Assembly: GCA_965208675.1 (NCBI GenBank)
Contig: OZ242351.1
Coordinates: 512,001 to 576,000, forward strand
DNA from: Candidatus Poribacteria bacterium
GTDB lineage: Bacteria > Poribacteria > WGA-4E > PCPOR2b
Direction of reading: 5' to 3'
DNA length: 64,000 nucleotides
Position numbers and translations under genes: made by a program. Below are positions 882-19,565 of this stretch, in pieces; within the stretch, counting starts at the first letter, position 1; each line of letters starts with the position of its first letter. The notes beneath the pieces are model-generated. The model had not been told where the DNA came from, searched no databases, and saw only the letters and a list, made by a program, of their open reading frames with translations.

Positions 882-2258
882 GTGGGCACAGTGGATAAAT
901 TCGATAATGAAACACTGGCTCGTTTAAGTGCACAGGGTAATGAAAGCGCGTTCGTTGAGCTAATCCGACGGCATGAACGGCAGTTAGCGGATTTAATCCA
1001 GTATCAACTCGGAAATCGCGGCGACGCTGAAGATGTGCTGCAGGAGACATTAATGCAGGCGTGGGTTGGGATTCGCCATTTACGCGAGCCGAAAACCGTC
1101 GGGCGGTGGCTGCTTCGGATTGCCCAGAATCGTTGCCGTGATTTTCTAAAATCTGCCCAACGCCGAGCCCAGCCGATGGAAGCCGACGAATTAACCCGGC
1201 TCATCGACCGTTTCGGTCATAGGCAGGTTAGGAATAGACATCTTCTCAATGATGCAGTCGCAACCTTAGAGGAGGTGCCGGAAACCGAGCGTAACGCCGC
1301 GCTACTTTTTTACCTTGAAGGATTTACCATTGCCGAAATCGCTGCACGAAGCCGCTGCGCCGAAGGGACGGTTAAGCGGCGCCTGTTTCAGGCACGGGCT
1401 CACCTCCGTCAATCCTTTGGTGTTTCTAACAAAAGGAGGATAAGTCAGATGCAGACGCACAAACCGGGAACCAAAACGCAACCATTTCCGCTCCATCGTC
1501 CGGAGATTGTCATCACCCAAATTAACACAGAGCCATTCTCGGTGGATTGTCCCGAACTCCGATGTTGGTTCATTGTGCCCAAAATCGGGGAGCGTACCCT
1601 GTATGCGAACTATGATCCGATGGATTGGAAACTCACGGAAGTGTATGAGTTACAAGTGGTCAGGCAGAGCCGTGTGCATGATATGGATGGGGTTGAGATT
1701 GACATCTACGCATGGAACTCTCAAACCGGCTGGATGCCATCTGCATGGCAAATACACGGCAGGTTGACTGAAGAGGAGGTGGAGTATTTAGCGGTGTCAC
1801 AACTTTCCGATGGCAAAAAGATATTGTACACCTACCTTGACGAAGATTTCGATTTCGACTGGGGACGAATGCCTCGGAAGGTACAGGACATAGGGCGTTT
1901 CGTGCACCAAGCTAACGGCTCGTTAAAACAGGTACATAGTGTTGACAATGTGGAAGCAAGCGGTGCGGGCGTTTTCTCCGTCTCAATCGGCGACAGACAC
2001 TTTACCTGTCTCCGAATAATTGAACTGGACGCACCTGTCGAAAAGATAGGACGTGACTTTTCAATAACCGAAAGCTACATTACGGAGGTAGGTCGCACCG
2101 TATTGGTCCGGCATTTCTGTCACCCTGAGAGGACAATGTATAATAACCAAGGGATTCGTGAAAGGGTTATCCTTGATAAAGATGTGCAAATTGTAATCGA
2201 CGGCGTCACTTTTGTTCACTGGTATGACGGCATTTCAAATTTGGCGTTTGGATTTTAA
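882..2258 (+). CDS. ECF sigma-70 factor with ~270 aa C-terminal extension
   Basis: Region 2 (DAEDVLQETLMQAW...WLLRIAQNRCRD) and region 4 (EGFTIAEIA...EGTVKRRLFQAR). AGGAGGAG RBS before GTG. Confidence 0.9.
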   Translation: MGTVDKFDNETLARLSAQGNESAFVELIRRHERQLADLIQYQLGNRGDAEDVLQETLMQAWVGIRHLREPKTVGRWLLRIAQNRCRDFLKSAQRRAQPMEADELTRLIDRFGHRQVRNRHLLNDAVATLEEVPETERNAALLFYLEGFTIAEIAARSRCAEGTVKRRLFQARAHLRQSFGVSNKRRISQMQTHKPGTKTQPFPLHRPEIVITQINTEPFSVDCPELRCWFIVPKIGERTLYANYDPMDWKLTEVYELQVVRQSRVHDMDGVEIDIYAWNSQTGWMPSAWQIHGRLTEEEVEYLAVSQLSDGKKILYTYLDEDFDFDWGRMPRKVQDIGRFVHQANGSLKQVHSVDNVEASGAGVFSVSIGDRHFTCLRIIELDAPVEKIGRDFSITESYITEVGRTVLVRHFCHPERTMYNNQGIRERVILDKDVQIVIDGVTFVHWYDGISNLAFGF

Positions 2259-3084: not shown

Positions 3085-3113
3085 TTGAGGGCGTTCTGTT
3101 CGTGTGGTATAAT
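3085..3113 (+). promoter_or_regulatory. Sigma70 promoter for the propeller locus
   Basis: TTGAGG-17bp-TATAAT with extended -10 TG (TGGTATAAT). Confidence 0.7.
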
Positions 3114-3210
3114 GTCGGATTTAGGAAACCTAAATGATTAGCACCGGGGACAAATCTTGGGTGTTGCTGGGCAATTCCACTATGAATCAAAAGTCGGGAG
3201 GGGAACCCTC

Positions 3211-6200
3211 GTGGGTATTTCAGGAGCAAAGTTGACATTAGACAGCCGCTGGTTCATCGTTATCTTATCGCTATTCGGTTGCGCCGGCACCTCGACTGAC
3301 TATATACCGGAGGTAACGAACAAAGATCTGACTTGGAATGCAACCGCGCTTTTGAGTGATCGGGTTAATGCAGTCGCAGCAGATGCCGAACATGTATGGG
3401 TCGGCACCGACAAAGGGGTCAATCGTTTCAATAAACGTGAGAACAGGTGGATAGGTTATACTGTGGAAGATGGGCTGGCGAACAACAAAGTATCCAGCGC
3501 GGCGATTGACGGAGATGTCGTTTGGTTCGGAACAGAGTCCGGCATTTCAAAATATCAGCCAAAAATCGACAAATGGACAACCTACAACCGTGACGACGGC
3601 CTCCCGAGTAACCGCGTATTGGCAGTAGGTGTGGATGGAGTTTATATTTGGTTTGGCACGGCTAAGGGTTTGTGCCGGTATAACAAAGCCATTGACGTGT
3701 GGGCGCTTCGCACCGTTGACGATGGCGGGTTGACCAGCAACCAAATTACCGATATTGCAGTGGAGGACGAATATGTATGGTTTGCGACGGACGAGGGAGT
3801 ATCACGGTACGATAAAAAAATAGATTCGTGGACGCAATTGACCAAAAGCGATGGGTTAGCGGACGAGAAAGTCACTACCATCGCAATTGAGGATGAATTT
3901 ACTTGGTTCGGCACGAAAAATGCCGGTGTGAGCTTATACAGCAACGCTGAGCAGGCGTTTGTAAAGACCTATACGCGAAACGATTTGCTTGAAACCGACA
4001 AGATAAATTACATCTTGGTCGACGGATTGTATATTTGGATCGGAACAGCAAATGAAGGTGTTCAAAGATTCATCAAACCCGCCAATACGTGGATTCACTA
4101 TAGCACAGAAGATGGGCTGCCGTCGTCAAACATCACGGCGATGGCTGTCGATGGCAAGTATATCTGGTTCGGCACGTATGAGGACGGGCTGGCGCGATTC
4201 GACAAGATTAGTGGGCTTTGGACCGCTGTCAAGAGAGAAGAAGGCTTAGTGAGCGATGACGTAAAATCGATTGTTGAGCAGAATGGCAAGCTTTGGATTG
4301 GCACTTCGATGGGGCTAAGTCAATTTGACTTGCAATCAAGGCAGTGGAAAACCTTCGCCAAGGGGCAAGGACTGACGACGAATTACATCACTCGCGTTGT
4401 TGCCGACGATGACGTAATATGGGTGGGCACATCCAAGGGGGTAGGACGGCATCAGAACGGACGGTGGAAATTCTGGCAGCAACAACACGGACTCCCCAGC
4501 GATTTTGTTGTGGATGTGGCGGTAAATAATCAATCGGTTTGGGTCGGAACACGTAATGGTCTATGTCGATATGACGCTAAGAGCGACAGGTGGCATAACT
4601 TCGATAGACTAAAGCATACCTGGATAAAATCCATCGCTTTTGATGACGGTATGTTGTGGCTTGCGACGGACCGCGGATTAGCCCAATTAACAAACTTGAA
4701 CAACAGTGCCTTGACGGAGGTACAAATCGATTTTTATTCATCGCATTGTGCGGATTACGCCAACACAATCTTGGTAGCGGACAGTGCCGTCTGGATCGGC
4801 ACACGGAATGGACTTACGAGATATGGGAAACACGAGAATAGTTGGCGCCATTTTACTGTTGAAGATGGACTTCCGAATAATAACGTCAGGACGCTGGCTG
4901 TGACGGAAAACGCGCTTTGGATCGGTACGCCGAGTGGGTTAACCACATTTCCTCGAAATGAGTGGAACGACTATTCAGGGTTGGAATCGAGTGGATGGCA
5001 GCATTTCAACCTGACGCAGCCTGGGGCGGAGATGGGGCATGAAAATGTCCGGGATATCTGTGTCGTGGATGGTCAGGTCTGGCTGGCTACAATCGGCGGC
5101 TTGGGTGTGTACTCTCTCCAAAACAGTACGTGGAGAGCAATTCGTGCAACGGAACGAACAACTGTTCTGCGTCACGGCGATGTCCACCACACTGCGCTTG
5201 ATGGCTATTGGGTATGGTTTCTGTCATGGCCCAACACCTCCAACGGAGGAATAGTTCGGTATGACAAACGCACACGAACTTGGGGTCATTTCATGAAAGA
5301 AGATGTGACACCAAGCGGACGAAACGGCGAGACGCGGTATATCAGCCAAATCAATTGGATGGAGGTAACCGCTGATAGCGTATGGTTTGCAACCGATGGC
5401 GGTGTACTGGCTTATCACAAAAAATCGGACACGTGGCGGCACTACACGTCGAAAGACGGGTTAGCGGCGGATAAAACGACAACGTTGACGGTTGATGGAA
5501 ATGACGTATGGGTCGTTTTGAGGGATAACCGCATCTGCCGCTATCATCGAAATACGGACGCATGGGATACGCATCAGGTGGTTCTTAAGGAAATTGCGCC
5601 CGGAATGGAATCGTACCGAACGCGAATTGCGGCGGACAATCGGTATGTGTGGGCGCCAGCTCAGAGGGAGGGCGTGGCGCGTTTCGACAAGGTAAACCAA
5701 TCGTGGCGCAGATACACATCGGCAGACGGCTTGTCGAGCGGAACAATCGCATTCATAGCTGTGGACAATAATAATGTTTGGGCTTATGGTGGAGCTAGCG
5801 GTTTAAGCAAGTACGACGAAAACACTGATAGCTGGAGTGTCATTGACGACAAAAAGGGTTTAGCTTCTAATCGGGTTCGTGAAGTCATTTCCGGCGTGGA
5901 TTTTATGTGGGTGTTGCATGACCGCAGGTGGTGGGAAGAAGACGACTATGCGCCGGCAAGTGGACTGCACCGTGCCAATCAGACGTGGCAGCGTTTTCGA
6001 GGGCACCCGGAAAACGTCGGCAACAATTTTACAGATGTGCAGGAAATACGTGAAGTGGTGTGGTTTGGCAGTAATAATCACGGTGTCAGCCGATACGACA
6101 AGGCATCATCGTCATGGACTGTGTTCACGGAAGAAGACGGATTGCTCAACAACCGCGTGATCTATCCATCCCTGAAAATTGATGGCAATTTTCTCTGGAT

Positions 6201-7215
6201 GGGCGGTGGCAGCGGCATCAGTCGCTACGGCCTGCGCGACGATAGCTGGACCGTCTTTACAGGGCGTGCGTCCTTGCCGTCAGATGTTGTCCGCGCCGTG
6301 GCTGTCGATTCTCGTTACGTTTATTGCGGGACAGATCGGGGCGCAACCCGGTACGATAAGCGGCACGACCGATGGCTAGAAGGACAAATTATAGGAGACC
6401 CAGTGAACGCGCTCGCTCACGATGATAAATACGTATGGATAGCGAGCACCAAAGGGGTGATTCGGTTTGACAAGTCGGCGCATTTGACGGACTATCACGA
6501 TGAAGAAAACGGTCTAGCTGACACATTTGCTAAAGTGGCTGACGTGGCGAGCCGTACATTGTGGATCGGCACTGAGAAGGGGGTGAGCAAATACAACACG
6601 CTTTCGGACGACCCGAACGCTTGGGAGACTTTTACTCACGCTGATGACGTAGACACTTTGCAATTAACTCAGAAATACGCCAACAGCCTTGTATACAACC
6701 GTGTTACAAGTATAGCAGTTGGCAATCGTTTCGTCTGGGTAGGTACAGAAAGAGGCGTCAGCCGCTATGACATGAGGAAGGGAACATGGGATACGTATAC
6801 GAAGCATGATGGATTGCATCACAATGAAGTGAGCAGTATTTGTATTGACGGCGATAAGGTGTGGTATGGAGTAACTGGGGGAGTCAGCAAGTTGGATACT
6901 CGGACAGAAGAATGGAGCGCATTCTTGACATCTGACGGATTAGCTAGTGGTCACATTACCTGTATCGCAGCGAGCGATGACTTCGTATGGTTCGGAACGT
7001 TTGATTCGGGCGTGTCTAGATACCACAAGGCAACTGCGACGTGGAGAAAATACACGCAGAAGGATGGGCTTAGCCACAATCGCGTTTTCGACATCGCTGC
7101 GGAAGAGGATTTCATCTGGGTGGGTACTGAGCGCGGATTAAGCCGGTATGACACGACGACGGACACCTGGACAATCTTTACGAAGCATTTTGACAGAGAA
7201 GATGATAGGAGATGA
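3211..7215 (+). CDS. Giant multi-beta-propeller lipoprotein (Reg_prop-like repeats), paralog 1
   Basis: 29 repeats of DGLxxNxVxxIAVDGxxVWxGTxxGxxRYD. Lipobox-like LFG-C after a hydrophobic stretch. Start is GTG 3211 (GGGAGG RBS) or TTG 3232; the ORF track starts at 3157. Confidence 0.85.
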   Translation: MGISGAKLTLDSRWFIVILSLFGCAGTSTDYIPEVTNKDLTWNATALLSDRVNAVAADAEHVWVGTDKGVNRFNKRENRWIGYTVEDGLANNKVSSAAIDGDVVWFGTESGISKYQPKIDKWTTYNRDDGLPSNRVLAVGVDGVYIWFGTAKGLCRYNKAIDVWALRTVDDGGLTSNQITDIAVEDEYVWFATDEGVSRYDKKIDSWTQLTKSDGLADEKVTTIAIEDEFTWFGTKNAGVSLYSNAEQAFVKTYTRNDLLETDKINYILVDGLYIWIGTANEGVQRFIKPANTWIHYSTEDGLPSSNITAMAVDGKYIWFGTYEDGLARFDKISGLWTAVKREEGLVSDDVKSIVEQNGKLWIGTSMGLSQFDLQSRQWKTFAKGQGLTTNYITRVVADDDVIWVGTSKGVGRHQNGRWKFWQQQHGLPSDFVVDVAVNNQSVWVGTRNGLCRYDAKSDRWHNFDRLKHTWIKSIAFDDGMLWLATDRGLAQLTNLNNSALTEVQIDFYSSHCADYANTILVADSAVWIGTRNGLTRYGKHENSWRHFTVEDGLPNNNVRTLAVTENALWIGTPSGLTTFPRNEWNDYSGLESSGWQHFNLTQPGAEMGHENVRDICVVDGQVWLATIGGLGVYSLQNSTWRAIRATERTTVLRHGDVHHTALDGYWVWFLSWPNTSNGGIVRYDKRTRTWGHFMKEDVTPSGRNGETRYISQINWMEVTADSVWFATDGGVLAYHKKSDTWRHYTSKDGLAADKTTTLTVDGNDVWVVLRDNRICRYHRNTDAWDTHQVVLKEIAPGMESYRTRIAADNRYVWAPAQREGVARFDKVNQSWRRYTSADGLSSGTIAFIAVDNNNVWAYGGASGLSKYDENTDSWSVIDDKKGLASNRVREVISGVDFMWVLHDRRWWEEDDYAPASGLHRANQTWQRFRGHPENVGNNFTDVQEIREVVWFGSNNHGVSRYDKASSSWTVFTEEDGLLNNRVIYPSLKIDGNFLWMGGGSGISRYGLRDDSWTVFTGRASLPSDVVRAVAVDSRYVYCGTDRGATRYDKRHDRWLEGQIIGDPVNALAHDDKYVWIASTKGVIRFDKSAHLTDYHDEENGLADTFAKVADVASRTLWIGTEKGVSKYNTLSDDPNAWETFTHADDVDTLQLTQKYANSLVYNRVTSIAVGNRFVWVGTERGVSRYDMRKGTWDTYTKHDGLHHNEVSSICIDGDKVWYGVTGGVSKLDTRTEEWSAFLTSDGLASGHITCIAASDDFVWFGTFDSGVSRYHKATATWRKYTQKDGLSHNRVFDIAAEEDFIWVGTERGLSRYDTTTDTWTIFTKHFDREDDRR

Positions 7216-7302
7216 ATCGAAAAGAGAGCGTGCCATCCAGTTGCGATGCATTGTTCCGCAATTATTCGGACGAACGGTTAGGAATGAGAAAGGAATTTAG
7301 CT

Positions 7303-8238
7303 ATGACCGAAACAAGTAAGGGCGGTCTTGCAATAGCGAAGCACATTGCATCGTCCTACGTTGATGACTCCAGTGTCAAGGTAATTTTAGTCGGCGGTTC
7401 AGTCTCACGCGGCTGCGCAGACGAATACTCCGATCTTGAAATTGGTATCTTCTGGGCGGAGAGGCCATCCGTTCGCATGCGGAAGGCTGCTATCAAACGT
7501 GTCGGCGGAGAACTATGGTCGTTGAACGAGTCGCGGGGGAGTGAGAAGTGGGGACTCAACGAAATTACTGTCAATGGAAAATCCTACGCAGGTACGTTAA
7601 TGGTTTCTACGATACATCTCAGTGTCACAGAAACGGAAGCCCGCCTATCAGACGTTATTGATTGTTACGATACTGACATTGAGAAGCAGGGATTGCTTTC
7701 CGCCATCCAACACGGTTTGCCTTTGCACGGCACGGCGATTTGTGGGCGATGGCAGACTAGGGCATCCGCATACCCTGATGAGCTTGCACGGCGAATGGTT
7801 CGAGAGAACCTCTGGATGGGACCGTGGTTCTGCCCTGAACAGTATATTGGCAGAGACGACCTTCTTGTCCTGTACGATCACTATATTCAGATTGAGCAGG
7901 GCATTCTCAAGGTGCTGTCGGGGCTGAACCGAGTCTATTATCCAACTCCTTATACCAAGTGGATGGATTGGCTCATTCAGCAGATGTCAATTGCCCCGCC
8001 GGACCTATCAGTTCGACTGAAGTCAATTTTCCATGCGGGCGCCGCATCTGCATGGGTTGAACTTAAAACGTTGGTTTTCGAAACTTTATGCTTTGTTGAG
8101 CACCACATGCCTGATGTAGGTACGCCAGTATCGGGTGAACAGAATCCACCCCACGTCAACATGGTATGGGCGAAAAGGCGGTGGATGCCTCACTCACCTT
8201 ACAGCCTCATGCGGAATATCGCCGCAACCGAATATTAG
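7303..8238 (+). CDS. Pol-beta-superfamily nucleotidyltransferase domain protein with helical C-terminal domain
   Basis: GGSVSRGCADEYSDLE matches the GS-x-D-x-D/E NTase signature. AAGGA RBS. Confidence 0.75.
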   Translation: MTETSKGGLAIAKHIASSYVDDSSVKVILVGGSVSRGCADEYSDLEIGIFWAERPSVRMRKAAIKRVGGELWSLNESRGSEKWGLNEITVNGKSYAGTLMVSTIHLSVTETEARLSDVIDCYDTDIEKQGLLSAIQHGLPLHGTAICGRWQTRASAYPDELARRMVRENLWMGPWFCPEQYIGRDDLLVLYDHYIQIEQGILKVLSGLNRVYYPTPYTKWMDWLIQQMSIAPPDLSVRLKSIFHAGAASAWVELKTLVFETLCFVEHHMPDVGTPVSGEQNPPHVNMVWAKRRWMPHSPYSLMRNIAATEY

Positions 8239-8248
8239 GATTACTTAT

Positions 8249-9025
8249 ATGGCAAGCATTTATAACTTTCCCGACGTCTACGATGCCGTGCTTCGATTTC
8301 CACCTGATCAGATTGAAACACAGGTTAACTCCATCCGGCAGTTGCTGAGAGGGCGAGGTGTAACCAAAGGCAGGATGCTCGAACTTGCTTGTGGGACATG
8401 TGCGCATGGAATATTTTTCGCAAAAAGCGGATTTTCTGTAACAAGCATGGACATCAATCCAAACATGCTTGCGAGTGCACAGAATCGAATGGAAACTGCA
8501 GGAGTTAAAATCCAACTCATTCAAGGTGATGTGGTTGATTTTAACCTAAACCATGCGGGTATTGACTGCGCGATTTTTATGGCAGAGACCTTCCCTCTGA
8601 TTACCGCGTATGAAGACGTCAAGAGCCATTTTCAATCGGTGAGACGTCACCTCAAACCGGGCGGACTCTACGTTATTGATATGGATAAACATTACTTCGC
8701 ACCTCCAAAACGTAAAATTGGGAGGTGGGGTGAAAAAACAGTTCGACTTAGCAACGGACAAGTGGAGGTCTGGCACGAGGACTTTCCAGGAGATTGGGTT
8801 GAAGGAGTAAATCGCATGACGATGCACTGCCGAATTCACGTTAACGATACCATTTATGAAACAGCCGATGAATGGAGTCTTCGATACTATAGTCCTTGGA
8901 TACTATCTTTGCTGGCGAGAACATTAGAAGGTTGGAATTTAACCGGATTCTTCTCGCGCCACAATCTGAACCAAGATATTTCCGATGAATCTCACTATTT
9001 CACAGTTTTGGAAAAAGCGTATTAA
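8249..9025 (+). CDS. Class I SAM-dependent methyltransferase
   Basis: MLELACGT motif I, MDINPNML, QGDVVDF, HLKPGGLYVID. ATG 8249 lies just after the upstream stop. Confidence 0.9.
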   Translation: MASIYNFPDVYDAVLRFPPDQIETQVNSIRQLLRGRGVTKGRMLELACGTCAHGIFFAKSGFSVTSMDINPNMLASAQNRMETAGVKIQLIQGDVVDFNLNHAGIDCAIFMAETFPLITAYEDVKSHFQSVRRHLKPGGLYVIDMDKHYFAPPKRKIGRWGEKTVRLSNGQVEVWHEDFPGDWVEGVNRMTMHCRIHVNDTIYETADEWSLRYYSPWILSLLARTLEGWNLTGFFSRHNLNQDISDESHYFTVLEKAY

Positions 9026-9047
9026 ACCGAACACTGAAAGGCGCGCA

Positions 9048-12000
9048 ATGATGTACCAAGTCCACATGATTTTGGGGTTCATGACATTCCTGTTCGTCGC
9101 AATCGGTTTTACGCACGGCTCAGAACAGATGCAACCCGAATTTTTTGACGCTGAAGGGTTGGGAGCAACCAGCCAACTCATTAGTGACCGCGTTCTATCA
9201 CTAGCCGTCGATTCACGCTATGTGTGGGTTGGAACAGATCGGGGATTGAGTCGGTACGATAAACGGAGCGACCAGTGGGACAATTTTACCGTTAAAGACG
9301 GCTTGGCGCATAATACCGTGGTTTCCATCGCTCTAGACAGCGATTTGGCCTGGATTGGTACACGCGATGGTGTGAGTTGTTTTGACGTGCATACAAATAC
9401 CTGGACGCGCTACATGCCGCGTGACGGCTTGGCAGGGCGAGACATCTCCTGCATCGCTGTGGATTCGAGATTCATCTGGTTTGGCACACCAAACGGACTG
9501 TCGCGCTACGACAAAGAGACGAATAGTTGGGCGCAGAAACGCGAAAAGGACGGACTCGCGGGTGACGCGGTGACACGCATTACCATTGATGAAGACTACA
9601 TCTGGATTGGTACGCGGAATGGGATCTCCAGATACGACAAACTCACCGATTCGTGGAACAACTACGACACAAATAGCGGTCTCGTTGACAACAGTGTGGC
9701 AGCTATAGCCGCAGACGGGGATTTTGTGTGGTTCGGTACGGAAGAAAAAGGCCTCAGCCTCTATGACCGGCGGAATTCAGATTTCGTCAGGACGTATACC
9801 AAAAAAGATCAGCTGGCGAGCGATCACATTAGGGCATTAGCAGCCGATGGGACATCTCTGTGGTTAGGAACCGCCGATCGCGGTGTACAGCGATATATCT
9901 TATCTGTGAACACATGGCAGCAATACACGGTTTTAAATCCTGAAAAAACGGAAAATACGGCGCCAACTGGGTTAATTTCCAATCACATAACGGCGATCGC
10001 ACCTGACGGTAATGTGGTGTGGTTCGGCACACACGAACATGGATTGGCACGGCATGACTTGCGCCGCGGAACGTGGAAATTTTACGGCGAAGTAAAAGCG
10101 TTGAGCGATAACGATGTTAAAGATGTGGCTGTAACGGACGAATCGGTTTGGGTAGCGACGCGATTTGGATTGAATCAGGCATCGTATCGGGACGTTGCGG
10201 AGTTTTCGACTGAATGTAATTGGCGAACATTTCGTAAGGCGGACGGCTTGGCGGATAACTATATCACTTGCGTCTTGCAAGTGGAAGAGGACGTTTGGGT
10301 CGGTACGCCGAGTGGTTTGGGGTTGCGGCGTGGAGACGAGGGCGAGTGGATGTTTTTTTCGACGAAAGATGGACTTCCGCATGACTTCGTGACCTGCCTG
10401 GCGTGGCAACCGACGATCAGAGAATCCGAAAAGCGGGAATCACTGGAAGAAACGCGAAAACAAAAGGGGACGGAGGACGAAGACATTCAAACTCGTTATG
10501 ATTCGCGTCTATGGATTGGGACAAAAGCCGGAATTTCGACATACGAACCGCAAAGCCGCCAATGGAATACGTATCCGCCGCCATTGCAAATTTCAGGTCG
10601 CGTTAACGACATTGTATTCGACGGTGATTTCGTCTGGATCGCTACGGAGTATGGACTTGTTTATTATGATGGGGCCGCAGGTGAATCAGGAAAACTGACC
10701 GTAAAGGACGGTTTGCCTGCAGACATGATTAACACGGCTGCTATAGGCAATCGGTCTATATGGGTTGGCACGCAATCGGGCTTATCACAACTGAGCAAAT
10801 CATCATTTAAAACCCGTTCACCCTCGTCCGCCACGCACATACCGCGTTCAAACGTAAGGGCGGTTGCCGTTGATGGCAGGGACGTCTGGATTGGAACTCC
10901 GTCTGGTTTGTATTGCATTGCCGGCGATGCATTTACACATTACACACGCGAGAGCACCGATGGCGGGCTTGTTAGCGATAATGTAAAAGCTATTGAGATA
11001 GACGGCGGCAAAGTTTGGGTCGGTACCACTGCGGGCTTTAGTGTCTTGGATAAGCATGGAAAGAAGTGGTCGAAACATTCCGCGGCGGCAACCACAGAAG
11101 TGCTGCGATCGAATTGGGTAAGCAAGCTCGCCGAGGATGGAACTGATATTTGGTTCGGCAATTGGAATGACTCTGCAGATGGCGCCATTGTAAAGTACGA
11201 TAGACGAACAGATACTTTTCGATTCTTCGACAAAGATGACCTACCATTGAAACCCACCGGCCGACCGATTACGCACATACACGCACTAACTGCAGGCGAA
11301 AATGGGGTTTGGGCCGGCACTAACGGAGGGTTGTTACGCTACGACAAAACGAAGGATTCATGGCGTCATTACACCGTGTATGACGGTCTACCGAACAATG
11401 AAGTCTGGAGTATCGTCTTCGATTTGCCCTACGTATGGACAGCACATATTGGCGGCGTGGTTAGTCGATATTCGATCGCAATGGATGAATGGACGACTTT
11501 CGAAATTTCGCCAAGCGAAACATGGAGCGGAATCGGTTCCATTGCTGTTGACCCGCAATATGTCTGGGTCACGACGATGTGGGATGGGCTCAAGCGATAC
11601 GAAAAATCAACAGGTACATGGACAAATGTCACGGAGGTACACGGTTTGGGTGATAACGAAGCGAACGATCTGCTTGTTGACGGCGAGCATGTCTGGGTCA
11701 CCGGTTGGGGGGATGCCAGCCGATACAATCGGCGAACCGGGGAATGGAATGTCTTCAGCCGGTGGCGCGTGCTCTCCGGTCCGAACATTTACCTCAGTAG
11801 AGGTCTGGACGGAGTTTGGCTTGCATACCCGTGGCTAAGTTGGGGCGATGCAATCGCCTCAAAATATCACAATAAATCCGGATCATGGACAACATTGAAC
11901 GTACCGGAAATTGAAAGGGGCTATTTTGGACGTACAATGCAGGTCGTGGAATCCATTGACAGTGTTTGGTTCGCGGTGGAATGGCTGGGATTGGCTCGAT

Positions 12001-13187
12001 ATAATAAAGGCTCAAACGACTGGACATTCTTCGATGAAAAAAACGGTCTTGCAAGCGGCGAGCTCCATGAGCACTCCATAGTCGTCGACGAAAACTATGT
12101 CTGGGTGGGAACGGCTGGTGGATTGGGTCGGTATGACATTGAGAGAGAGGTCTGGACGACTTTCACGCAGTCGCCGTTAACGCCGATAGGGCGTGCTCGA
12201 AAAGTGTACGCAATTGCGGCTGAAGCGCGTTTTGTGTGGGTGGGAACTCCCAACGGTCTGCATCGATATGACAAAGATACAGACCGATGGTACTCCCCGC
12301 GTCCGAGGGGAAAAGACGGTAACATGCTAGATAATCCAAGCGTCGGTAGTATCGCGATGGACGAAAAATATGTTTGGCTAGGTACTAACGAAGGTGTCTT
12401 GCGATATGATAAAGCCGGAGACTACTGGGAAGTGTACACAGATGAAAACGGCCTTCCGTCCAACGCTGTCCGAGATGTGGCAGTCAGAAGCTACGAAGTG
12501 TGGATTGCGACGGATCATGGTGTCGCGGTATTCAACCGACTGTCTGACGATCCAAATACCTGGGAGTCGCACACGCAGGAGTTGGAAATCAAAGCGATGC
12601 AAGATGTCAAAAGGTACGCGGAGTCGCTCCTGAGCAATGATGTACGGTGTGTCGGAGTCGGCGATAGGTCTATCTGGTTCGGTACGGACAAAGGGCCGTG
12701 CCGTTACGATAGAGAGAAAAAGACATGGATGTCCTTCTTCAAGAGTGTCGCATCTTCGTCGCAAATTGCTGGTTTTTCAGAATCGCCCGCCCATCACGCA
12801 GCGAAGATTGCTGACATCAGCGTCATCGCCGTTGATGAAGATTATGTCTGGATCGGTACCAGTAAAGGCGCAGCAAAGTATCATCTAGTATCCGGGGATT
12901 TCGACACTTTCACCCAATCGGACGGTTTGGCGAGTAATCTAGTTACGTGTATTGCTCTCAACCACGAGGAAATATGGTTCGGATCAGCGAACGCGGGAGT
13001 CACACGACTGAATAAAGTGTCAGGCAAATGGCGCGTCTTTAACGCAACTGATGGTCTGCTCCACGATCGAGTCGAAGCCATTGCGTTTGATGGGGATCAG
13101 CGGTGGTTCGGCACAGAGCTTGGACTGTGTCGGTACGATCCAAAAACCGAAACATGGACAAGTTATGCGGAGGATTTCAATCCTTGA
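9048..13187 (+). CDS. Giant multi-beta-propeller exported protein, paralog 2
   Basis: 29 propeller repeats colinear with paralog 1. Hydrophobic signal peptide (ILGFMTFLFVAIGFTHG). Confidence 0.85.
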   Translation: MMYQVHMILGFMTFLFVAIGFTHGSEQMQPEFFDAEGLGATSQLISDRVLSLAVDSRYVWVGTDRGLSRYDKRSDQWDNFTVKDGLAHNTVVSIALDSDLAWIGTRDGVSCFDVHTNTWTRYMPRDGLAGRDISCIAVDSRFIWFGTPNGLSRYDKETNSWAQKREKDGLAGDAVTRITIDEDYIWIGTRNGISRYDKLTDSWNNYDTNSGLVDNSVAAIAADGDFVWFGTEEKGLSLYDRRNSDFVRTYTKKDQLASDHIRALAADGTSLWLGTADRGVQRYILSVNTWQQYTVLNPEKTENTAPTGLISNHITAIAPDGNVVWFGTHEHGLARHDLRRGTWKFYGEVKALSDNDVKDVAVTDESVWVATRFGLNQASYRDVAEFSTECNWRTFRKADGLADNYITCVLQVEEDVWVGTPSGLGLRRGDEGEWMFFSTKDGLPHDFVTCLAWQPTIRESEKRESLEETRKQKGTEDEDIQTRYDSRLWIGTKAGISTYEPQSRQWNTYPPPLQISGRVNDIVFDGDFVWIATEYGLVYYDGAAGESGKLTVKDGLPADMINTAAIGNRSIWVGTQSGLSQLSKSSFKTRSPSSATHIPRSNVRAVAVDGRDVWIGTPSGLYCIAGDAFTHYTRESTDGGLVSDNVKAIEIDGGKVWVGTTAGFSVLDKHGKKWSKHSAAATTEVLRSNWVSKLAEDGTDIWFGNWNDSADGAIVKYDRRTDTFRFFDKDDLPLKPTGRPITHIHALTAGENGVWAGTNGGLLRYDKTKDSWRHYTVYDGLPNNEVWSIVFDLPYVWTAHIGGVVSRYSIAMDEWTTFEISPSETWSGIGSIAVDPQYVWVTTMWDGLKRYEKSTGTWTNVTEVHGLGDNEANDLLVDGEHVWVTGWGDASRYNRRTGEWNVFSRWRVLSGPNIYLSRGLDGVWLAYPWLSWGDAIASKYHNKSGSWTTLNVPEIERGYFGRTMQVVESIDSVWFAVEWLGLARYNKGSNDWTFFDEKNGLASGELHEHSIVVDENYVWVGTAGGLGRYDIEREVWTTFTQSPLTPIGRARKVYAIAAEARFVWVGTPNGLHRYDKDTDRWYSPRPRGKDGNMLDNPSVGSIAMDEKYVWLGTNEGVLRYDKAGDYWEVYTDENGLPSNAVRDVAVRSYEVWIATDHGVAVFNRLSDDPNTWESHTQELEIKAMQDVKRYAESLLSNDVRCVGVGDRSIWFGTDKGPCRYDREKKTWMSFFKSVASSSQIAGFSESPAHHAAKIADISVIAVDEDYVWIGTSKGAAKYHLVSGDFDTFTQSDGLASNLVTCIALNHEEIWFGSANAGVTRLNKVSGKWRVFNATDGLLHDRVEAIAFDGDQRWFGTELGLCRYDPKTETWTSYAEDFNP

Positions 13188-13220
13188 CGGTCCAAGGATT
13201 TCCTGCAGAGAAATGACAAG

Positions 13221-16200
13221 ATGAAGAAACAGGTGAAATGCACAATACAAATTTTGCTCTACTTATTGCTAATCTCCCTGATCGGGAGCGGTTTGGCTCA
13301 TCTTAACTCAGAGGACGATAAAGTGAAAGTTCTGGAGGAATCAACACTTTCCCAAACGGCATCAGGAAAAACGTTGGTGAGCGATAACATCCGCTGCGTT
13401 TCAACTTCTTCCGACCACGTTTGGGTAGGAACAGACCGAGGTGTCAGCGTCTACAATAAGGCGGATAGCCGTTGGACGAAGTTAGATTGGGAAGACGGTT
13501 TAGTCTCAGATGATGTCACCGCGTTGTCCGCCGATCGAGAGATTCTCTGGGTAGGTACAACTCTGGGTATCAGCCTTTACAACATTGAGAATGGCGGTTT
13601 CACGAATTTTCAACGGCGCGACGGTTTAGCAAGCAACAAAGTCACCGCAATCGCTGTGGACGGAAATTACATCTGGGTCGGTACGGAGTCCGGTATTTCG
13701 CGTTATGATAGGACAACGGGTACATGGGCATTACATCGGGAGAAAGACAAAGATCGGTTTAACTCCATTACCGTAATTGCAGTGGAATCGGAGTATGTTT
13801 GGTTTGGTACAGAAGATGGGCTACGGCGATACGATAAATCTAAGGACGCATGGAACGCTTACACGAAAGAGGACGGGCTGGTGGAAAACCATATCCGTTG
13901 TATTGCATTAAGCCCTGATGCTGTTTGGGTGGGTACAGAGAAATCGGGTGTGAGCAAATACAGTGTAGCCAACCAATCCTTCACCGAAAGCCATACCCGA
14001 ACGGATTTGTTGGAAAGCGATTTCATCAGGGCGATTGCAGTTGACGGCGACAATGTCTGGTTTGGTTCCGCAGACCGCGGAATTCGACGGTTTATTTCAA
14101 CGGTGAATACTTGGTTTAATTACACGGCTGGCAAAGGTTTAGTTAGCGATCACATTTCTTGGCTGCATGTTGATGGCGACCATATTTGGATCGGCAGCTA
14201 CGAGTTCGGTTTGGGTCAATTCGATAAAACGAACGATGGCTGGACATGGTATACAAAGCGAGATTCGCTGGTGTCCAATCAGATCAAATCCGTCGTTTCA
14301 ACTGAGAAGGCACTCTGGATTGGTACGAATAAAGGCCTGAATCGCTATGCACCTCAAAAAAAGTCGTGGAAGACGTTCACCAAGGCAGATGGTCTAGTGA
14401 CAAATTATATTACGCATTTGTCGGTAGGTGTGGATAACAGCACGATATGGGTCGGGACGCCATTGGGATTAGGGACGCTAGTTGGAAAACAGTGGAGATT
14501 CTATACGGAACGACATGGACTGGCAAATGACTACGTTACCGGTATCAGCGCGGTTCCCGGAAAGGTTTGGGTTGCGACCAAGGGTGGAGTGACTTCTTTT
14601 TCCGTAACCGCAACCCTGGAAACTGGGATTGAACAAACCAGCGCATCAACGATTAGGCAAGACTCACCGCGCGTTACATCCCGCGTCACACTTCATGATT
14701 CACAATCGTATCTTACTAGCAAGTGGGTAACCGCCGTCCTGGCAATTGGGGAAGAAGTGTGGGCGGGTACAACAGATGGGCTGTACCGGATAAACGATGA
14801 GACAGGCGAATTTGAGCCCGTTCTGAAAGTTAGTAATTATGTTAACGCACTTGCCTCTAGTGGTGATAAGCAATTGCTGGTTGGCACCCGAAACGGGTTG
14901 TGGATCATAGGGAACGAAAGGTCATCACAAATCACAGAAGGATTGCCGAACTTGAATGTCAGGTCCGTCGCGGTAGACAACGGGACCATCTGGGTAGGAA
15001 CGCCGGGCGGTGTTGCGCGTCTGAATAACGGGAGCGTTAATCAGGTTATTACAATGCAGGCTGGCGGCTTACTTCACGATAATGTACAGAGCATTGCTGC
15101 CGCGGATCGGCAGGTATTTTTCGGTACCGTCGCCGGTCTCGCTATCTATAACGTAGAGAACAGTCAGTGGGAACAATATAAACCGTATTACGATACAAAA
15201 ATTCTTAAAGAGGAACAAATCGGGTGGATTGAGTTGGATGGACACCGCCTGTGGGCGCTCAATTGGTCGTCTTCTCCAAATGGCGCAATTTTTAAATTCG
15301 ATCGGCGCACTGAGACGTGGATCGAATACACGAAAAGCGCACTGCCACTCTCTTCGAAAGTCCCGGTTATCACCGAAATTCACCGTCTGGCGGTAGGAGA
15401 AGAAGATGTCTGGTTTGCCGCTGGTGACGGTGGCGTACTGCGTTACAATAAAGCATCGGATACATGGACCCACATCACTATGTCCACTGGGTTACCGGGA
15501 CACCACGCTACCCTAATCGAGATAGATGGACAAAATGGCGTTTGGGTTTCTTTCCAAGGCGGAGTAGCAGGGCAGTATGATACACGAACGCAAAAATGGG
15601 AGACTGTGAAGGTGGCAGAAGCTGGTGCCGGAACGCGCGTTGAGGATATCGCTTGCACTAACGATTACGTCTGGTTTGCAACAAATAGCGCAGGGATTAG
15701 AAGATATGAACAATCTACGCAAACATGGAATTCGTACACGGAAGCGCAAGGTATGGCGTCGCGGTTTACTCATTGGATCGACGCGGATGGCGAAGGTGTG
15801 TGGACTAGCGGTGGTACTTCTTGGTCATGGGTCAGTGACCGAGGTGTGCGAGGGGTGAGTTTCTATCGTCCAATAGAAAACAGTTGGACGTTTTTTGACT
15901 GGAGAAACGGTTTGCGTGCAGAAGCGACCGGCTACGGACAGGTTGGCGAAAATTATGTTTGGTGTTTTGGATGGGAAGGAATCAACAGATACCATAAAAA
16001 AAGCAAATCTTGGACTTCCTTCAATTCCAGCGATGGTTTGCTAGTCCGTAATGTCCGTGCGGTCGCAATAGACAGTGACGGTTTCTGGGTAGGTTCGGAT
16101 GAAAGGGGTATTTGGAAGTACGCGCAAGCCTCTGGGGCATGGACAGTGTTCACCGTTGAGGACGGTTTAATTGATGGCAGCGTCCAACCATACGCGCTCA

Positions 16201-17303
16201 AAGTAGATCCGGAACATGTGTGGGTTGGAACGTCACAAGGTTTGAGCCGATACGATAAAAGGAGGAGGACATGGATTTCGTTCACCAAACCGACTACATT
16301 GGCAGACCGGCGAGCCGTCTCAGTTGCTGCTGATAGCCAATTCGCATGGGTCGGCACACACCGCGGCTTGAGTCGATACGACAAAATGTACGACAGATGG
16401 AGACATTTTAGGACTGAAAACGAAGAAAACGAGGATAATGGAGACGATGAGCGCGAGGAAAGTAGGGAAGAAAAAAGGAACGAACTGGTAGACAACAGCG
16501 TCGTAGATCTTTCTGTCGGTGTGCGGTACGTTTGGATCGCGACTGAAGGCGGGGTCGGCCGGTACGATAAAATCGCTAATCGGTTTGAATCGTACACCAA
16601 CGAGAATCAACTGCCGAGCGTCGATATCCGGGCAGTTGCAGAGAATAAAAGCGATGTGTGGATTGGGACGAAAAACGGCATTAGCAAGCACAGTATTCTA
16701 TCGGAAGATCGGAATGCCTGGGAAACATATAATGCTGCGATTGAAATCTTGCCAACAGTGAAGGGTAAGTACGCTAGGAGCTTGGAAAATGATGATGTGC
16801 GATGCCTTGCAATCGATGACATTCGAGTTTGGGTCGGAACCAAAACAGGCGTCTCACTCTATGAAATCGAAAAAGGGACGTGGAACACCTTTACTCAAAA
16901 GGATGGGTTGGCTAGTGATGAGGTAAGTTGTATTACACTTGACGGGGGGCGCGTATGGTTCGGGAGCGGGCGCGGTGTGACAGTTTATGATACGGAAAAT
17001 GATACCTGGAAGGTTCTTACAGAAGCGGATGGCTTGGGTTCGAATCTAATCACGTCTATCGCAATCCACCGGAGCCAAATCTGGTTTGGTACATTCGATA
17101 GTGGAACCACTGTGTTAGACAAAATCACCGGAAAATTCACGACCTTCACTAGAGCTGATGGACTTCCTCATAACGGCATCCTGTCGATTGCAGTAGACGG
17201 TAACTATCTCTGGTTCGGCACGCACGGCGGATTGACCCGATTTGATTCTGTAGCTAGGACGTGGACAGTCTATACTGAGCGATTTGACTATGATGGGTTG
17301 TAG
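13221..17303 (+). CDS. Giant multi-beta-propeller exported protein, paralog 3
   Basis: 29 propeller repeats. Sec signal MKKQVK...LLISLIGSGLA. Confidence 0.85.
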   Translation: MKKQVKCTIQILLYLLLISLIGSGLAHLNSEDDKVKVLEESTLSQTASGKTLVSDNIRCVSTSSDHVWVGTDRGVSVYNKADSRWTKLDWEDGLVSDDVTALSADREILWVGTTLGISLYNIENGGFTNFQRRDGLASNKVTAIAVDGNYIWVGTESGISRYDRTTGTWALHREKDKDRFNSITVIAVESEYVWFGTEDGLRRYDKSKDAWNAYTKEDGLVENHIRCIALSPDAVWVGTEKSGVSKYSVANQSFTESHTRTDLLESDFIRAIAVDGDNVWFGSADRGIRRFISTVNTWFNYTAGKGLVSDHISWLHVDGDHIWIGSYEFGLGQFDKTNDGWTWYTKRDSLVSNQIKSVVSTEKALWIGTNKGLNRYAPQKKSWKTFTKADGLVTNYITHLSVGVDNSTIWVGTPLGLGTLVGKQWRFYTERHGLANDYVTGISAVPGKVWVATKGGVTSFSVTATLETGIEQTSASTIRQDSPRVTSRVTLHDSQSYLTSKWVTAVLAIGEEVWAGTTDGLYRINDETGEFEPVLKVSNYVNALASSGDKQLLVGTRNGLWIIGNERSSQITEGLPNLNVRSVAVDNGTIWVGTPGGVARLNNGSVNQVITMQAGGLLHDNVQSIAAADRQVFFGTVAGLAIYNVENSQWEQYKPYYDTKILKEEQIGWIELDGHRLWALNWSSSPNGAIFKFDRRTETWIEYTKSALPLSSKVPVITEIHRLAVGEEDVWFAAGDGGVLRYNKASDTWTHITMSTGLPGHHATLIEIDGQNGVWVSFQGGVAGQYDTRTQKWETVKVAEAGAGTRVEDIACTNDYVWFATNSAGIRRYEQSTQTWNSYTEAQGMASRFTHWIDADGEGVWTSGGTSWSWVSDRGVRGVSFYRPIENSWTFFDWRNGLRAEATGYGQVGENYVWCFGWEGINRYHKKSKSWTSFNSSDGLLVRNVRAVAIDSDGFWVGSDERGIWKYAQASGAWTVFTVEDGLIDGSVQPYALKVDPEHVWVGTSQGLSRYDKRRRTWISFTKPTTLADRRAVSVAADSQFAWVGTHRGLSRYDKMYDRWRHFRTENEENEDNGDDEREESREEKRNELVDNSVVDLSVGVRYVWIATEGGVGRYDKIANRFESYTNENQLPSVDIRAVAENKSDVWIGTKNGISKHSILSEDRNAWETYNAAIEILPTVKGKYARSLENDDVRCLAIDDIRVWVGTKTGVSLYEIEKGTWNTFTQKDGLASDEVSCITLDGGRVWFGSGRGVTVYDTENDTWKVLTEADGLGSNLITSIAIHRSQIWFGTFDSGTTVLDKITGKFTTFTRADGLPHNGILSIAVDGNYLWFGTHGGLTRFDSVARTWTVYTERFDYDGL

Positions 17304-17340
17304 AGCTTGATACACAATACACATTGAGGAAGTTGAGCAG

Positions 17341-19308
17341 ATGAGGATATGGAATTTAAATGTGAAAATTTCAAAGTTTATCTTATACAGCATAGTGTTG
17401 TTTTTACTGATTGGGACTCCTGTCTACCGGGCGGCAGCGGAAGATGTGTACAGTCTATTCGGCAAGCTCTTCCTTTCAGGACGCGTAGAATATGATTTCA
17501 CGAATAAACGAGACTTTATTGCGGACACAGAAGAGGATGCCGTTCGGCAAAACGAGTTTGATTTTGACCGCGTGTTTCGCCGCGGCTTCCACAGTGTCAT
17601 GATTATTGAGGAAACGGCTGGCAACGTCAAGAACATCTTGAGTTTGGGAGAAGTGCCTACCACCTTTACGAAATTCACTTTTGATCAGATTGACCTCTCG
17701 GGTGTACGATGGGATGTCCGGTCAGAGCGTACCGATTGGACGATATTGATGGTACCCGGGTTGCTCAACCCGGTAATTGGCCAAGAAAATGTTCATGGAT
17801 CGGGGATTGGCATACGCGAAGTAACGAAATTCGGGAAGTCTAAGTTTGGAGCTTCTTGGTACTTCCGCGATACGCCTGTATGGGCTTTGGATTTAGAGAC
17901 TAACTTTGCAAATTACGGTTTGAAGGCGGAATTTGCGACGACCCCGAAAGGTGCGTTGAGAAAAAACTTCAGTTCTCGTTTTGATGCGACGACGACGGTG
18001 TTTAAGGCGTTCCGAACCGTTGGTGACACAATCTTCCAGGGGGAGGCCTTTCGCGTCGGACCGCAATTCGATGCCTCGCGTTCTGTCGGGGATAACGACG
18101 ATCAGGACCGTTATAGCGATAACACAACGTTAGATCCGCCCTCATTGATTATTCCGGGCGATTTGGACAAGAATAACAACGGTACGTTCGATTACGAGGA
18201 TGATATTCTACTATTTGACGTTGATGAAGATTTTCTTGATGAAAGGGATCGAAATAACAACGGAATACGAGACGCGGAAGAGAACGACAAAGATCCCAAT
18301 TACGAATTTGATGCTGGACTGCGAGGGATGCGTATGTTCATGAAACGCAAGACAACGCGCGGCAATACCTCCACTGACCTCGAAATTGGAATGCAATTTG
18401 AAAAAGACCTCATGGAAAGGACATTTCAACGCCGTTCAACGGCAACAAAGGCGTTCACCAATCTCATCTACAAAAAAGAACTCTCTCAGAATTCTGATTT
18501 GGTCCTTGAGAACGAACTGAAGTGGGTGAGAGACCACATCCCAGATGAGACCTAGTATTTTGCCGGATTCTTGAGCGAGACAGAAGGGCAACTCTATCGG
18601 GCTAATCCCAATGTGCAGAAATCTGAGGCGGAAGGCGGGTTGGCGTTTTTTAATGTAGATGGCGGCGTTGAGGTAGAGAAGCGGCGAATAGATCCACTCT
18701 TGATGCAGGACGATGCAATAAATACAGCCAAGGTCACTTGGGAATATTCGGGTATTAAGCACATGGTAACGACAGGGCGCGTCAAACTGCGATATAATCT
18801 GGATTTCAACCTTGAAAACGAGCATTACGAGGTCGGCATTCTAAAAACAAACTACCGAATGCGGCCATCCAAATCGCTTGAGATTACGCCGATGTTCAAA
18901 TATACGGTTCGCAACGGTTTCCAGATGGCGGAAGACCGTTTGGAACATCTCTCATTACAGGGGACAATTGATGGTGAAGAGATTTCACGCAATGTTCGAC
19001 TTAATGTAATTGAATCAGCAGATGTACGTGACATGGCGACAGCCTTTATTTTGAAAACCGTTTATCAGTTCACAAAGACTATTAAGATCACGGGCGGCGG
19101 GCAGGTGTTGCTCTTTAATGATATGCTTAAAGATGCGAACGATTTTGTTCGCCAGGCTATTCTAGCCGAGATGGAAAAGAGCTTTGTAGCTTACGAAAAG
19201 GAACTGTTTTTGCACATAGGTGCCAAATACATCGATCAACGCGCCAACGCGGACTTGAACGACGATAATTACATGGAGACATTCGTGCGTGTGTTCGGGA
19301 AGTTCTAG
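17341..19308 (+). pseudogene. Probable outer-membrane beta-barrel with Asp-rich Ca-binding-like insert, split by in-frame TAG at 18553-18555 (655 aa if joined)
   Basis: ORFs 17341-18555 and 18571-19308 share a frame (PDET*YFAGFLSETE). Signal peptide ending AAA-E, alternating amphipathic strands, DxNNNG motifs, C-terminal FVRVFGKF. Confidence 0.7.
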
Positions 19309-19525: not shown

Positions 19526-19565
19526 AAAAAAACGCAATGCAGAAGATGAACTTCTGCATTGCGTT
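19526..19565 (-). terminator. Rho-independent terminator of groEL
   Basis: Perfect 15-bp inverted repeat AACGCAATGCAGAAG-N5-CTTCTGCATTGCGTT followed by a U-tract on the minus strand. Confidence 0.85.

Follow-up and report, generated by a model that had tools for sequence, protein, structure and literature searches.

The window described here is a stretch of 64,000 nucleotides from Candidatus Poribacteria bacterium, positions 512001–576000 on contig C1 (OZ242351.1) of a closed 4.89-Mb genome (G000; G numbers denote the Poribacteria genomes compared). Near its beginning, on the plus strand, it encodes three giant propeller paralogs, called P1, P2 and P3 in gene order, followed by an outer-membrane barrel. 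The pair of giant propeller and barrel is real, conserved and, as far as searched, undescribed. P1 (3232..7215) is a 29-blade multi-propeller lipoprotein with the lipobox LFGC; P2 (9048..13187, placed by open reading frame (ORF) call and alignment) is a 29-blade multi-propeller whose signal peptide lacks a lipobox Cys here; and P3 (13221..17303) is of the same build, its signal peptide having Ser in place of the lipobox Cys found in most orthologs. The gene for the barrel, of 655 amino acids (aa), follows at 17341..19308 as one frame split by TAG and is thus interrupted in this strain. An earlier, sequence-only reading of this DNA had described the three paralogs as co-oriented, which they are, but had missed two small genes between P1 and P2, so that the paralog genes are not contiguous. 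The intergenic gaps among the six genes are 10–87 bases, an arrangement compatible with one operon.

A sigma-70-like promoter with an extended −10 element (TTGAGG-17-TG-TATAAT) is proposed at 3085..3113 on the plus strand, as the sequence-only reading had it. The site ranks first in a promoter scan, with 10 of the 12 consensus positions matched plus the TG, and it is a conserved island with diverging flanks in 4/4 same-genus genomes aligned. The scan overall is at chance level (21 sites versus 21.5 in shuffles); the call is therefore supported by the conserved island and not by the scan score. For P1, a start at TTG 3232 seems more likely than the called start at 3157, judging by an ATG in two relatives and a ribosome-site-like AGGAG upstream, and for P2 the more likely start is ATG 9048/9051.

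The giant propellers and the barrel

As called, the ORFs of P1, P2 and P3 encode 1352, 1400 and 1360 aa in the same orientation, in agreement with the ~1,350–1,400 aa first reported, and share 34–35% pairwise identity over their whole length. Each protein contains 29 four-stranded repeat units in register, counted by hand from a core listing and a three-way alignment. Matches to a strict core pattern number 22, 22 and 24, ~25-fold above shuffled sequences (mean <1, maximum 5 in 500). The count of 29 made by the sequence-only reading was thus correct, and its landmarks were all found at the places it had named (blade 15 and the junction of blades 25 and 26). In Pfam, P1–P3 match solely propeller families of the Reg_prop/PorZ_N type (PF07494, 116–123 bits against a cut-off of 20.4). 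The Pfam search found no Y_Y_Y, kinase or sorting domain, and past the signal peptide no hydrophobic 19-residue window exceeds 1.4, which bears out the earlier statement that Y_Y_Y, transmembrane and kinase domains are missing. The chains of P1–P3 terminate directly after blade 29, and conserved C-terminal tails are present on the propellers.

The lipobox assignments also held: P1 has the Cys, and P2 and P3 have signal peptides without it. Among relatives, a lipobox-like Cys (called with a custom pattern, not SignalP) occurs in 35/36 P1, 20/29 P2 and 49/56 P3 proteins and in 54/55 proteins of a fourth, single-type subfamily described below. The Cys of P2 and P3 was lost in the window's lineage and lost again in genus g11.

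A structural model of P1 covering residues 62–1261 (27 of the 29 blades) has a mean predicted local distance difference test (pLDDT) of 89.9 and a predicted template modelling score (pTM) of 0.86. Seven-bladed propellers align to residues 1–291 of the model and the double propellers BT4663, BT3049 and PorZ to residues 1–596; thus the 7+7 arrangement holds for the first two propellers. For the last 15 blades, neither fold searches, with a model of 27 blades, nor blade-profile comparison decided between 8+7 and 7+8. The earlier proposal of four propellers (7+7+8+7) is therefore sustained as a multi-propeller fold and in its first half, and its 8+7 half lacks support. In fold, P1 best matches BT4663 and BT3049, both sugar-sensing domains (Z 33.0, root-mean-square deviation (rmsd) 14–15 Å over 543–560 residues), and sequence matches of a P1-type propeller among solved structures are only sensor domains of hybrid systems (BT4663 type). 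Recognition of P1 in the ESM Atlas stayed under threshold. Named database matches of both P1 and the barrel belong to Candidatus Poribacteria, and near-identical DNA is present in sponge metagenomes, with no RNA dataset among the listed sources of such DNA; metagenome scans using distant P1 orthologs gave no matches.

Two properties vary along the propeller chain. Identity between subfamilies is 0.51 and 0.47 in the outer blocks versus 0.36 and 0.38 in the inner ones. The B–C loops, which lie on one propeller face, carry 4.0–4.5 Trp/Tyr residues per protein in blades 15–22 in all four subfamilies, compared with 0.55–1.9 in blades 1–7, ≤0.13 in blades 8–14 and ≤0.55 in blades 23–29, and the loop sequences in blades 15–22 vary by subfamily. 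Clusters of exposed Trp are typical of sugar-binding sites. In P1, this third propeller region with its Trp/Tyr-rich, paralog-specific B–C loops (5158..6264, plus strand) is a candidate ligand face.

The barrel is called as two ORFs, 17341–18555 and 18571–19308, which form a single frame split at codon 405. The premature TAG (18553..18555, plus strand) replaces an invariant Trp: codon 405 is TGG in 18/18 aligned relatives and in 6/6 other samples from six studies that are 95–99% alike. A sequencing error is unlikely, as short-read contigs of the probable source sample also carry TAG at a depth of 38–40 (two runs of one sample, so not independent). Recoding was rejected given the TGG codons in relatives and samples, and no tRNA with a CUA anticodon is among 49 ARAGORN calls. 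An internal stop is confined to G000 in the barrel matches listed for 140 genomes, although three further matches are fragmented. Read from these comparisons, the TAG is a nonsense mutation at the level of the strain; a product ending there would keep 15 of the 24 strands and lack the terminal Phe of the barrel. Because the barrel is truncated, the module is probably inactive in this strain, and the full machine is probably not made here. The sequence-only reading had placed a Phe-terminated barrel downstream of the paralogs; an outer-membrane-type barrel is what the intact ortholog indicates, and the in-frame TAG had been missed. Elsewhere on contig C1, a gene bearing a C-terminal domain (CTD) at 2853859–2854119 has an in-frame TAG, possibly another nonsense allele in this strain.

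The model of an intact ortholog (94% identical; pLDDT 72, pTM 0.66) has 24 membrane strands, counted from DSSP, with alternating short turns and long loops. With the first strand starting at residue 9 of the mature protein, the model has no N-terminal plug. Conservation is higher at lumen-facing than at lipid-facing positions (0.90 versus 0.79, with the register assigned by hydropathy), and the lumen contains many invariant Arg/Lys and Glu residues. An acidic loop of 87 residues (18058..18318, plus strand), with 27 Asp/Glu in the ortholog and two Dx[DN]xxG-type motifs, is the best-conserved long loop of the barrel (0.93) and lies on the predicted extracellular side. The intact ortholog matches 0 families in Pfam and NCBIfam, and fold searches returned nothing closer than generic porins (best Z 14.2, rmsd 7.8 Å, template modelling score (TM-score) ≤0.39); no close relative is among these matches, which does not by itself prove a new fold. 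These searches assigned the locus to no characterised family, in keeping with the sequence-only reading of it as a candidate undescribed complex. In the ESM Atlas, the barrel matched unnamed clusters only. Full-length close homologs collapse into one 50% cluster plus one 31% outlier, and many distant relatives of 700–1100 aa share the acidic-loop region.

Distribution across Poribacteria

Across 176 Poribacteria genomes, searched with a barrel profile and with a profile of the C-terminal half of the giant propellers, the barrel was found in 140 and a giant propeller in 139. Both genes are present in 139 genomes and neither in 36; the one genome with the barrel alone is an 81%-complete assembly. 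Joint absences occur between genera and also inside several of them, with the same count for both genes (present in 27/40 genomes of g8, 8/10 of g11, 2/3 of g10 and 1/3 of g15). Two controls behave differently: a fifth, distant propeller occurs in 17/176 genomes, three of which have no barrel, and a SprA-like gene occurs in 41/41 genomes, 11 of which are without the pair. The propeller lies directly upstream of the barrel in 119 of the 140 barrel genomes (113 with a same-strand propeller end ≤1.5 kb upstream in the listed rows, plus 6 from mapped loci). For the remaining barrels, the propeller is 3–7 kb upstream in 2, downstream in 3, far away on one contig in 3, on different contigs in 10 and unplaced in 3. 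Since propeller and barrel genes are kept and lost together, the gene-content evidence argues strongly that they are partners.

The trio is a minority form of this pairing. P3 orthologs are present in 30/176 genomes from three genera, and, of the 139 module-bearing genomes, ~109 are without the P3 subfamily and mostly have one propeller of the fourth subfamily; genus g5 has both the trio and the single propeller. The order P1–P2–P3–barrel is found in 29/29 complete trio loci in two families, and one paralog is split in 4/28 relatives' trios. The trio has been deleted as a block in three genomes: G016 and G019 kept the barrel and a single propeller, and G035 has no single type and kept only a barrel remnant. 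Other propeller or barrel genes are split in G029, G023, G059, G063, G040 and G109, several by transposase-like insertions; the module decays repeatedly. The four propeller subfamilies are deep clades with support of 1.0 each in a FastTree phylogeny of 72 sequences subsampled from 187 and rooted on the distant fifth paralog, in which the branching order of the clades is not settled. A recent tandem duplication of the single type as the origin of the trio was rejected on these grounds. A natural P1–P2 fusion in G012 and G024, suggested by long open-frame figures, was rejected on the DNA, and the fifth propeller was rejected as a module member by its differing distribution.

By these gene counts, the conserved unit is at least one giant propeller plus one barrel, not the trio, which is a lineage-specific set of paralogs. 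The synteny of four genes that the sequence-only reading proposed as a check is accordingly borne out for the propeller–barrel linkage and co-occurrence and confined to a minority of genomes for the trio, and a trio that must assemble as such is not supported, given the genomes that do without P3 and the two that kept the barrel with a single propeller.

A putative lid-and-pore module and its alternatives

The explanation that we tentatively put first is a lid-and-pore uptake module, in which a propeller lipoprotein would sit on the barrel and the ligand would probably be a glycan. The giant propellers have export signals, 29 blades and no output domain, and they co-occur with, and mostly adjoin, a single-copy barrel. 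Modelling predicts that 7-bladed propellers follow one another in a rigid arrangement, and that the barrel has no N-terminal plug domain, turns that are short on the periplasmic side, long loops on the outer side and a lumen lined by conserved charged residues. The surface location, physical binding, ligand and gating of the module are what we infer beyond this. The lipid-anchored propeller would act as a lid that catches the ligand and hands it to the pore; blades 1–7 and 23–29, which are most alike between paralogs, would form a docking frame, and blades 15–22 would bear a Trp-rich, paralog-specific binding face. The acidic loop may bind Ca2+; as a gate, it may pack inside the lumen on the invariant Arg/Lys residues. 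P1, P2, P3 and the fourth subfamily would be alternative lids of differing specificity for one barrel, a mechanism that the nonsense mutation would probably leave without function in this strain.

On this reading, the module would work like BtuG–BtuB, by analogy, while standing outside that family. BtuG is described as a seven-bladed propeller lipoprotein that forms an extracellular lid on its barrel (10.1101/2022.11.17.516869). In BtuB–BtuG and SusC–SusD, a lipoprotein is likewise encoded beside a barrel; capping of the Poribacteria barrel is proposed by analogy. The gene arrangement of such complexes is present here: a lipoprotein gene adjoins the barrel in 119/140 genomes, with a lipobox-like Cys in most members. 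The Poribacteria lid, however, has 29 blades, and the barrel differs from BtuB and SusC in having 24 predicted strands, not 22, and no N-terminal plug domain. Compared with TonB-dependent transporters, it has no TonB-receptor Pfam match and TM-scores of at most about 0.3. The hybrid two-component sensors (BT4663, 4a2l; BT3049, 3v9f; BT4673) share the Reg_prop repeats, and their best fold matches run over the first 14 blades. P1–P3 differ from these sensors in having 29 blades, not 14, in carrying a lipoprotein signal, in lacking Y_Y_Y, membrane helix and kinase, and in the angle between propellers (rmsd 14–21 Å).

Several observations weigh against an uptake role or loosen the partnership. Gene content is shared among related genomes, which makes the profile counts look more independent than they are, and no probability was assigned to them; deep-branching families mostly have propeller and barrel unlinked. 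Glycosidase, sulfatase, TonB and ExbBD genes are not recurrent beside the pair in the mapped loci, so the neighbourhood points to no particular ligand or energy source. Distant barrels of Latescibacterota sit with secretion-type genes, and no such propeller lies within ~10 kb in any of 79 loci. The acidic loop is modelled at pLDDT <50, and the Trp/Tyr count of the candidate face was made post hoc, with our own loop boundaries and no shuffle control.

Ranked next, and unlikely by comparison, is an accessory arm of a Poribacteria type IX-like secretion system in the style of PorZ on PorQ, in which the propeller would bind an anionic surface glycan and the barrel would keep it at the surface so that cargo could be attached or displayed. 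PorZ is described as a surface protein paired with a barrel and having a glycan ligand (PMC8545088, PMC5121618). Related propeller repeats are shared with the PorZ–PorQ arm (PF21544, and NF052228 below its cut-off); NF052228 PorZ is the best NCBIfam match of P1–P3, and PorZ is matched in fold (Z 27.3, rmsd 8.9 Å, 552 residues). The genome has a SprA-like gene, PorV-family genes, two PorU-like genes and 54 CTD matches; in genus g5, DUF4159 and PorV-family genes often converge on the barrel; and distant barrels occur in operons with CTD cargo, TPR, DUF4159 and MotA/ExbB genes. The type IX-like set and these distant-barrel operons are the main support for a secretion role. Against it, the NF052228 score of P1–P3 is 118–124 bits versus a cut-off of 260, and the sorting domain TIGR04183 is absent from P1–P3, with all 54 matches elsewhere in the genome. 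The giant propellers would be held by a lipid anchor rather than a CTD, and the barrel lies outside the PorV/PorQ families (no NF033709/PF19572 match), with the PorV-family genes located elsewhere in the genome. The pair is dispensable while the SprA-like gene is universal (41/41 genomes, 11 without the pair), unlike PorZ, which is described as essential for the secretion system in P. gingivalis (PMC8545088). A better PorZ candidate, a 1806-aa Reg_prop and CTD protein beside a PorV-family gene, lies elsewhere.

A heterotrimer of P1, P2 and P3 on the barrel, serving as a surface scaffold or adhesin for which one lipid anchor suffices, appears quite unlikely. It would account for the constant order P1–P2–P3–barrel (29/29 complete trio loci), for the deletion of the trio as a block in G016, G019 and G035, and for P2 and P3 having lost the lipobox Cys twice (the window's lineage and g11) while P1 kept it and the single-type protein rarely loses it (kept in 54/55). 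Conversely, the trio is in only 30/176 genomes and a single propeller suffices in most, 4/28 relatives' trios have one member split, and docking on the barrel or release as soluble proteins would account for the anchor loss equally well. A sponge-specific adhesin role is not required, as the pair is also present in deep-branching families (the habitats of those genomes are not established). We regard it as improbable that the barrel serves specifically to export the giant propeller lipoproteins or to anchor them at the surface, by analogy with Slam or two-partner systems, the propellers acting alone outside. This idea draws on the single-copy barrel that serves one to four propellers in strict co-occurrence, on the conserved C-terminal tails, and on the ushers FimD and PapC being the nearest barrels by rmsd and aligned length. 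The ushers are the best size match among barrels (FimD with 348 residues aligned at 4.7 Å, PapC with 338 at 6.0 Å), and usher pores have 24 strands. Yet the identity is 6–7%, the usher match (Z ~10) is tied with generic porins and may reflect strand number only, the barrel model has no usher plug or periplasmic domains, pilin and chaperone genes are absent nearby, and the barrel lacks POTRA, TPR or any other domain for handling in the periplasm. Last and least probable is a polysaccharide-secretin logic (PgaA, AlgE/AlgK, PelBC), in which the lipoproteins, located on the periplasmic side, would direct a polymer outward via the barrel. Polysaccharide secretins are among the best generic fold matches (4y25, Z 13.8; 9h80, Z 12.8), the lumen has basic residues, and a Wzz-like gene is close to one distant paralog of the barrel; these matches, however, have rmsd >9 Å, glycosyltransferase or synthase genes are not recurrent beside the pair, and the long loops that are conserved are predicted to lie outside.

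Carried further, the lid-and-pore reading leads to a proposal that we hold to be doubtful as a whole, namely, that Poribacteria own a phylum-wide import machine unrelated to TonB-dependent transporters. It would combine a plug-less 24-stranded barrel, a calcium-bound acidic-loop gate and interchangeable 150-kDa four-propeller lids, with the third propeller setting glycan specificity, and would be the first member of a wider superfamily that forms arrays in ExbBD- and type IX secretion-linked operons of Latescibacterota/Gemmatimonadota. Poribacteria are abundant uncultured sponge symbionts, reported to account for 27–33% of peptides in a recent sponge metaproteome (10.64898/2026.10.20.760564). 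A SusD match is absent from the window's genome; surface capture of large substrates is thus of interest. The two-gene module, present in about four fifths of the phylum, is a concrete target, and the nonsense allele and natural deletions supply loss-of-function lineages for comparison. The propellers of the module are the largest Reg_prop-type propeller proteins met in this analysis, and the barrel opens a superfamily without a Pfam or NCBIfam model. No description of the propeller–barrel pair was found in literature searches on Poribacteria propellers, secretion or barrels, subscription papers not being covered.

Neighbouring genes and related loci

Between P1 and P2 lie a nucleotidyltransferase-like/DUF4037 gene (7303..8238, plus strand; Pfam/NCBIfam match below cut-off) and a class I S-adenosylmethionine (SAM) methyltransferase gene (8249..9025, plus strand; Pfam match). 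They are found in 3/28 and 6/28 relatives' trio loci, respectively, and look like passengers. Upstream of the promoter, all four same-genus genomes have an extracytoplasmic function (ECF) sigma factor (window 882–2258) whose C-terminal extension of 280 aa matches no Pfam family. Between the barrel and a convergent groEL gene, a hairpin of 15 pairs that has a T run on the minus strand (19531–19565) is likely the groEL terminator. Farther along, on the minus strand (28754–34270), consecutive ORFs of 672 and 1165 aa have BNR, PD40, Ig and C-terminal FlgD/CTD matches; a PD40 repeat spans their junction, which suggests one secreted gene broken by a stop.

The type IX-like set on contig C1 comprises a 2178-aa SprA-like protein, PorV-family genes, two ~2100-aa PorU-like proteins and the CTD matches (positions 3218107–3224643, 179307, 4419762, 4189688–4195069 and 3854392–3859119). 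The 1806-aa Reg_prop and CTD protein, followed by a 718-aa PorV-family gene (1471073–1478653), is a better PorZ/PorQ-like candidate than P1–P3. The fifth giant propeller (1947096–1951445, minus strand; 1449 aa, 24% identical to P1–P3) is followed by a Pro-rich DUF4159 gene and is distributed independently of the barrel.

Distant relatives of the barrel occur in Latescibacterota and Gemmatimonadota in operons with arrays of 2–4 barrels. The same operons encode CTD-bearing F5/8 and FlgD proteins, a 1080-aa TPR protein, DUF5683, two DUF4159 proteins, a PorV-like protein and MotA/ExbB, which looks like an undescribed energised envelope system. In the window's genome, a 1109-aa distant barrel paralog with a lipobox-like Cys (contig C1 2969620–2972950, minus strand) lies upstream of MotA/ExbB and ExbD genes; proteins like it are present in nearly all 41 relatives searched and lie 1–21 kb from the pair in G034, G075 and G083.

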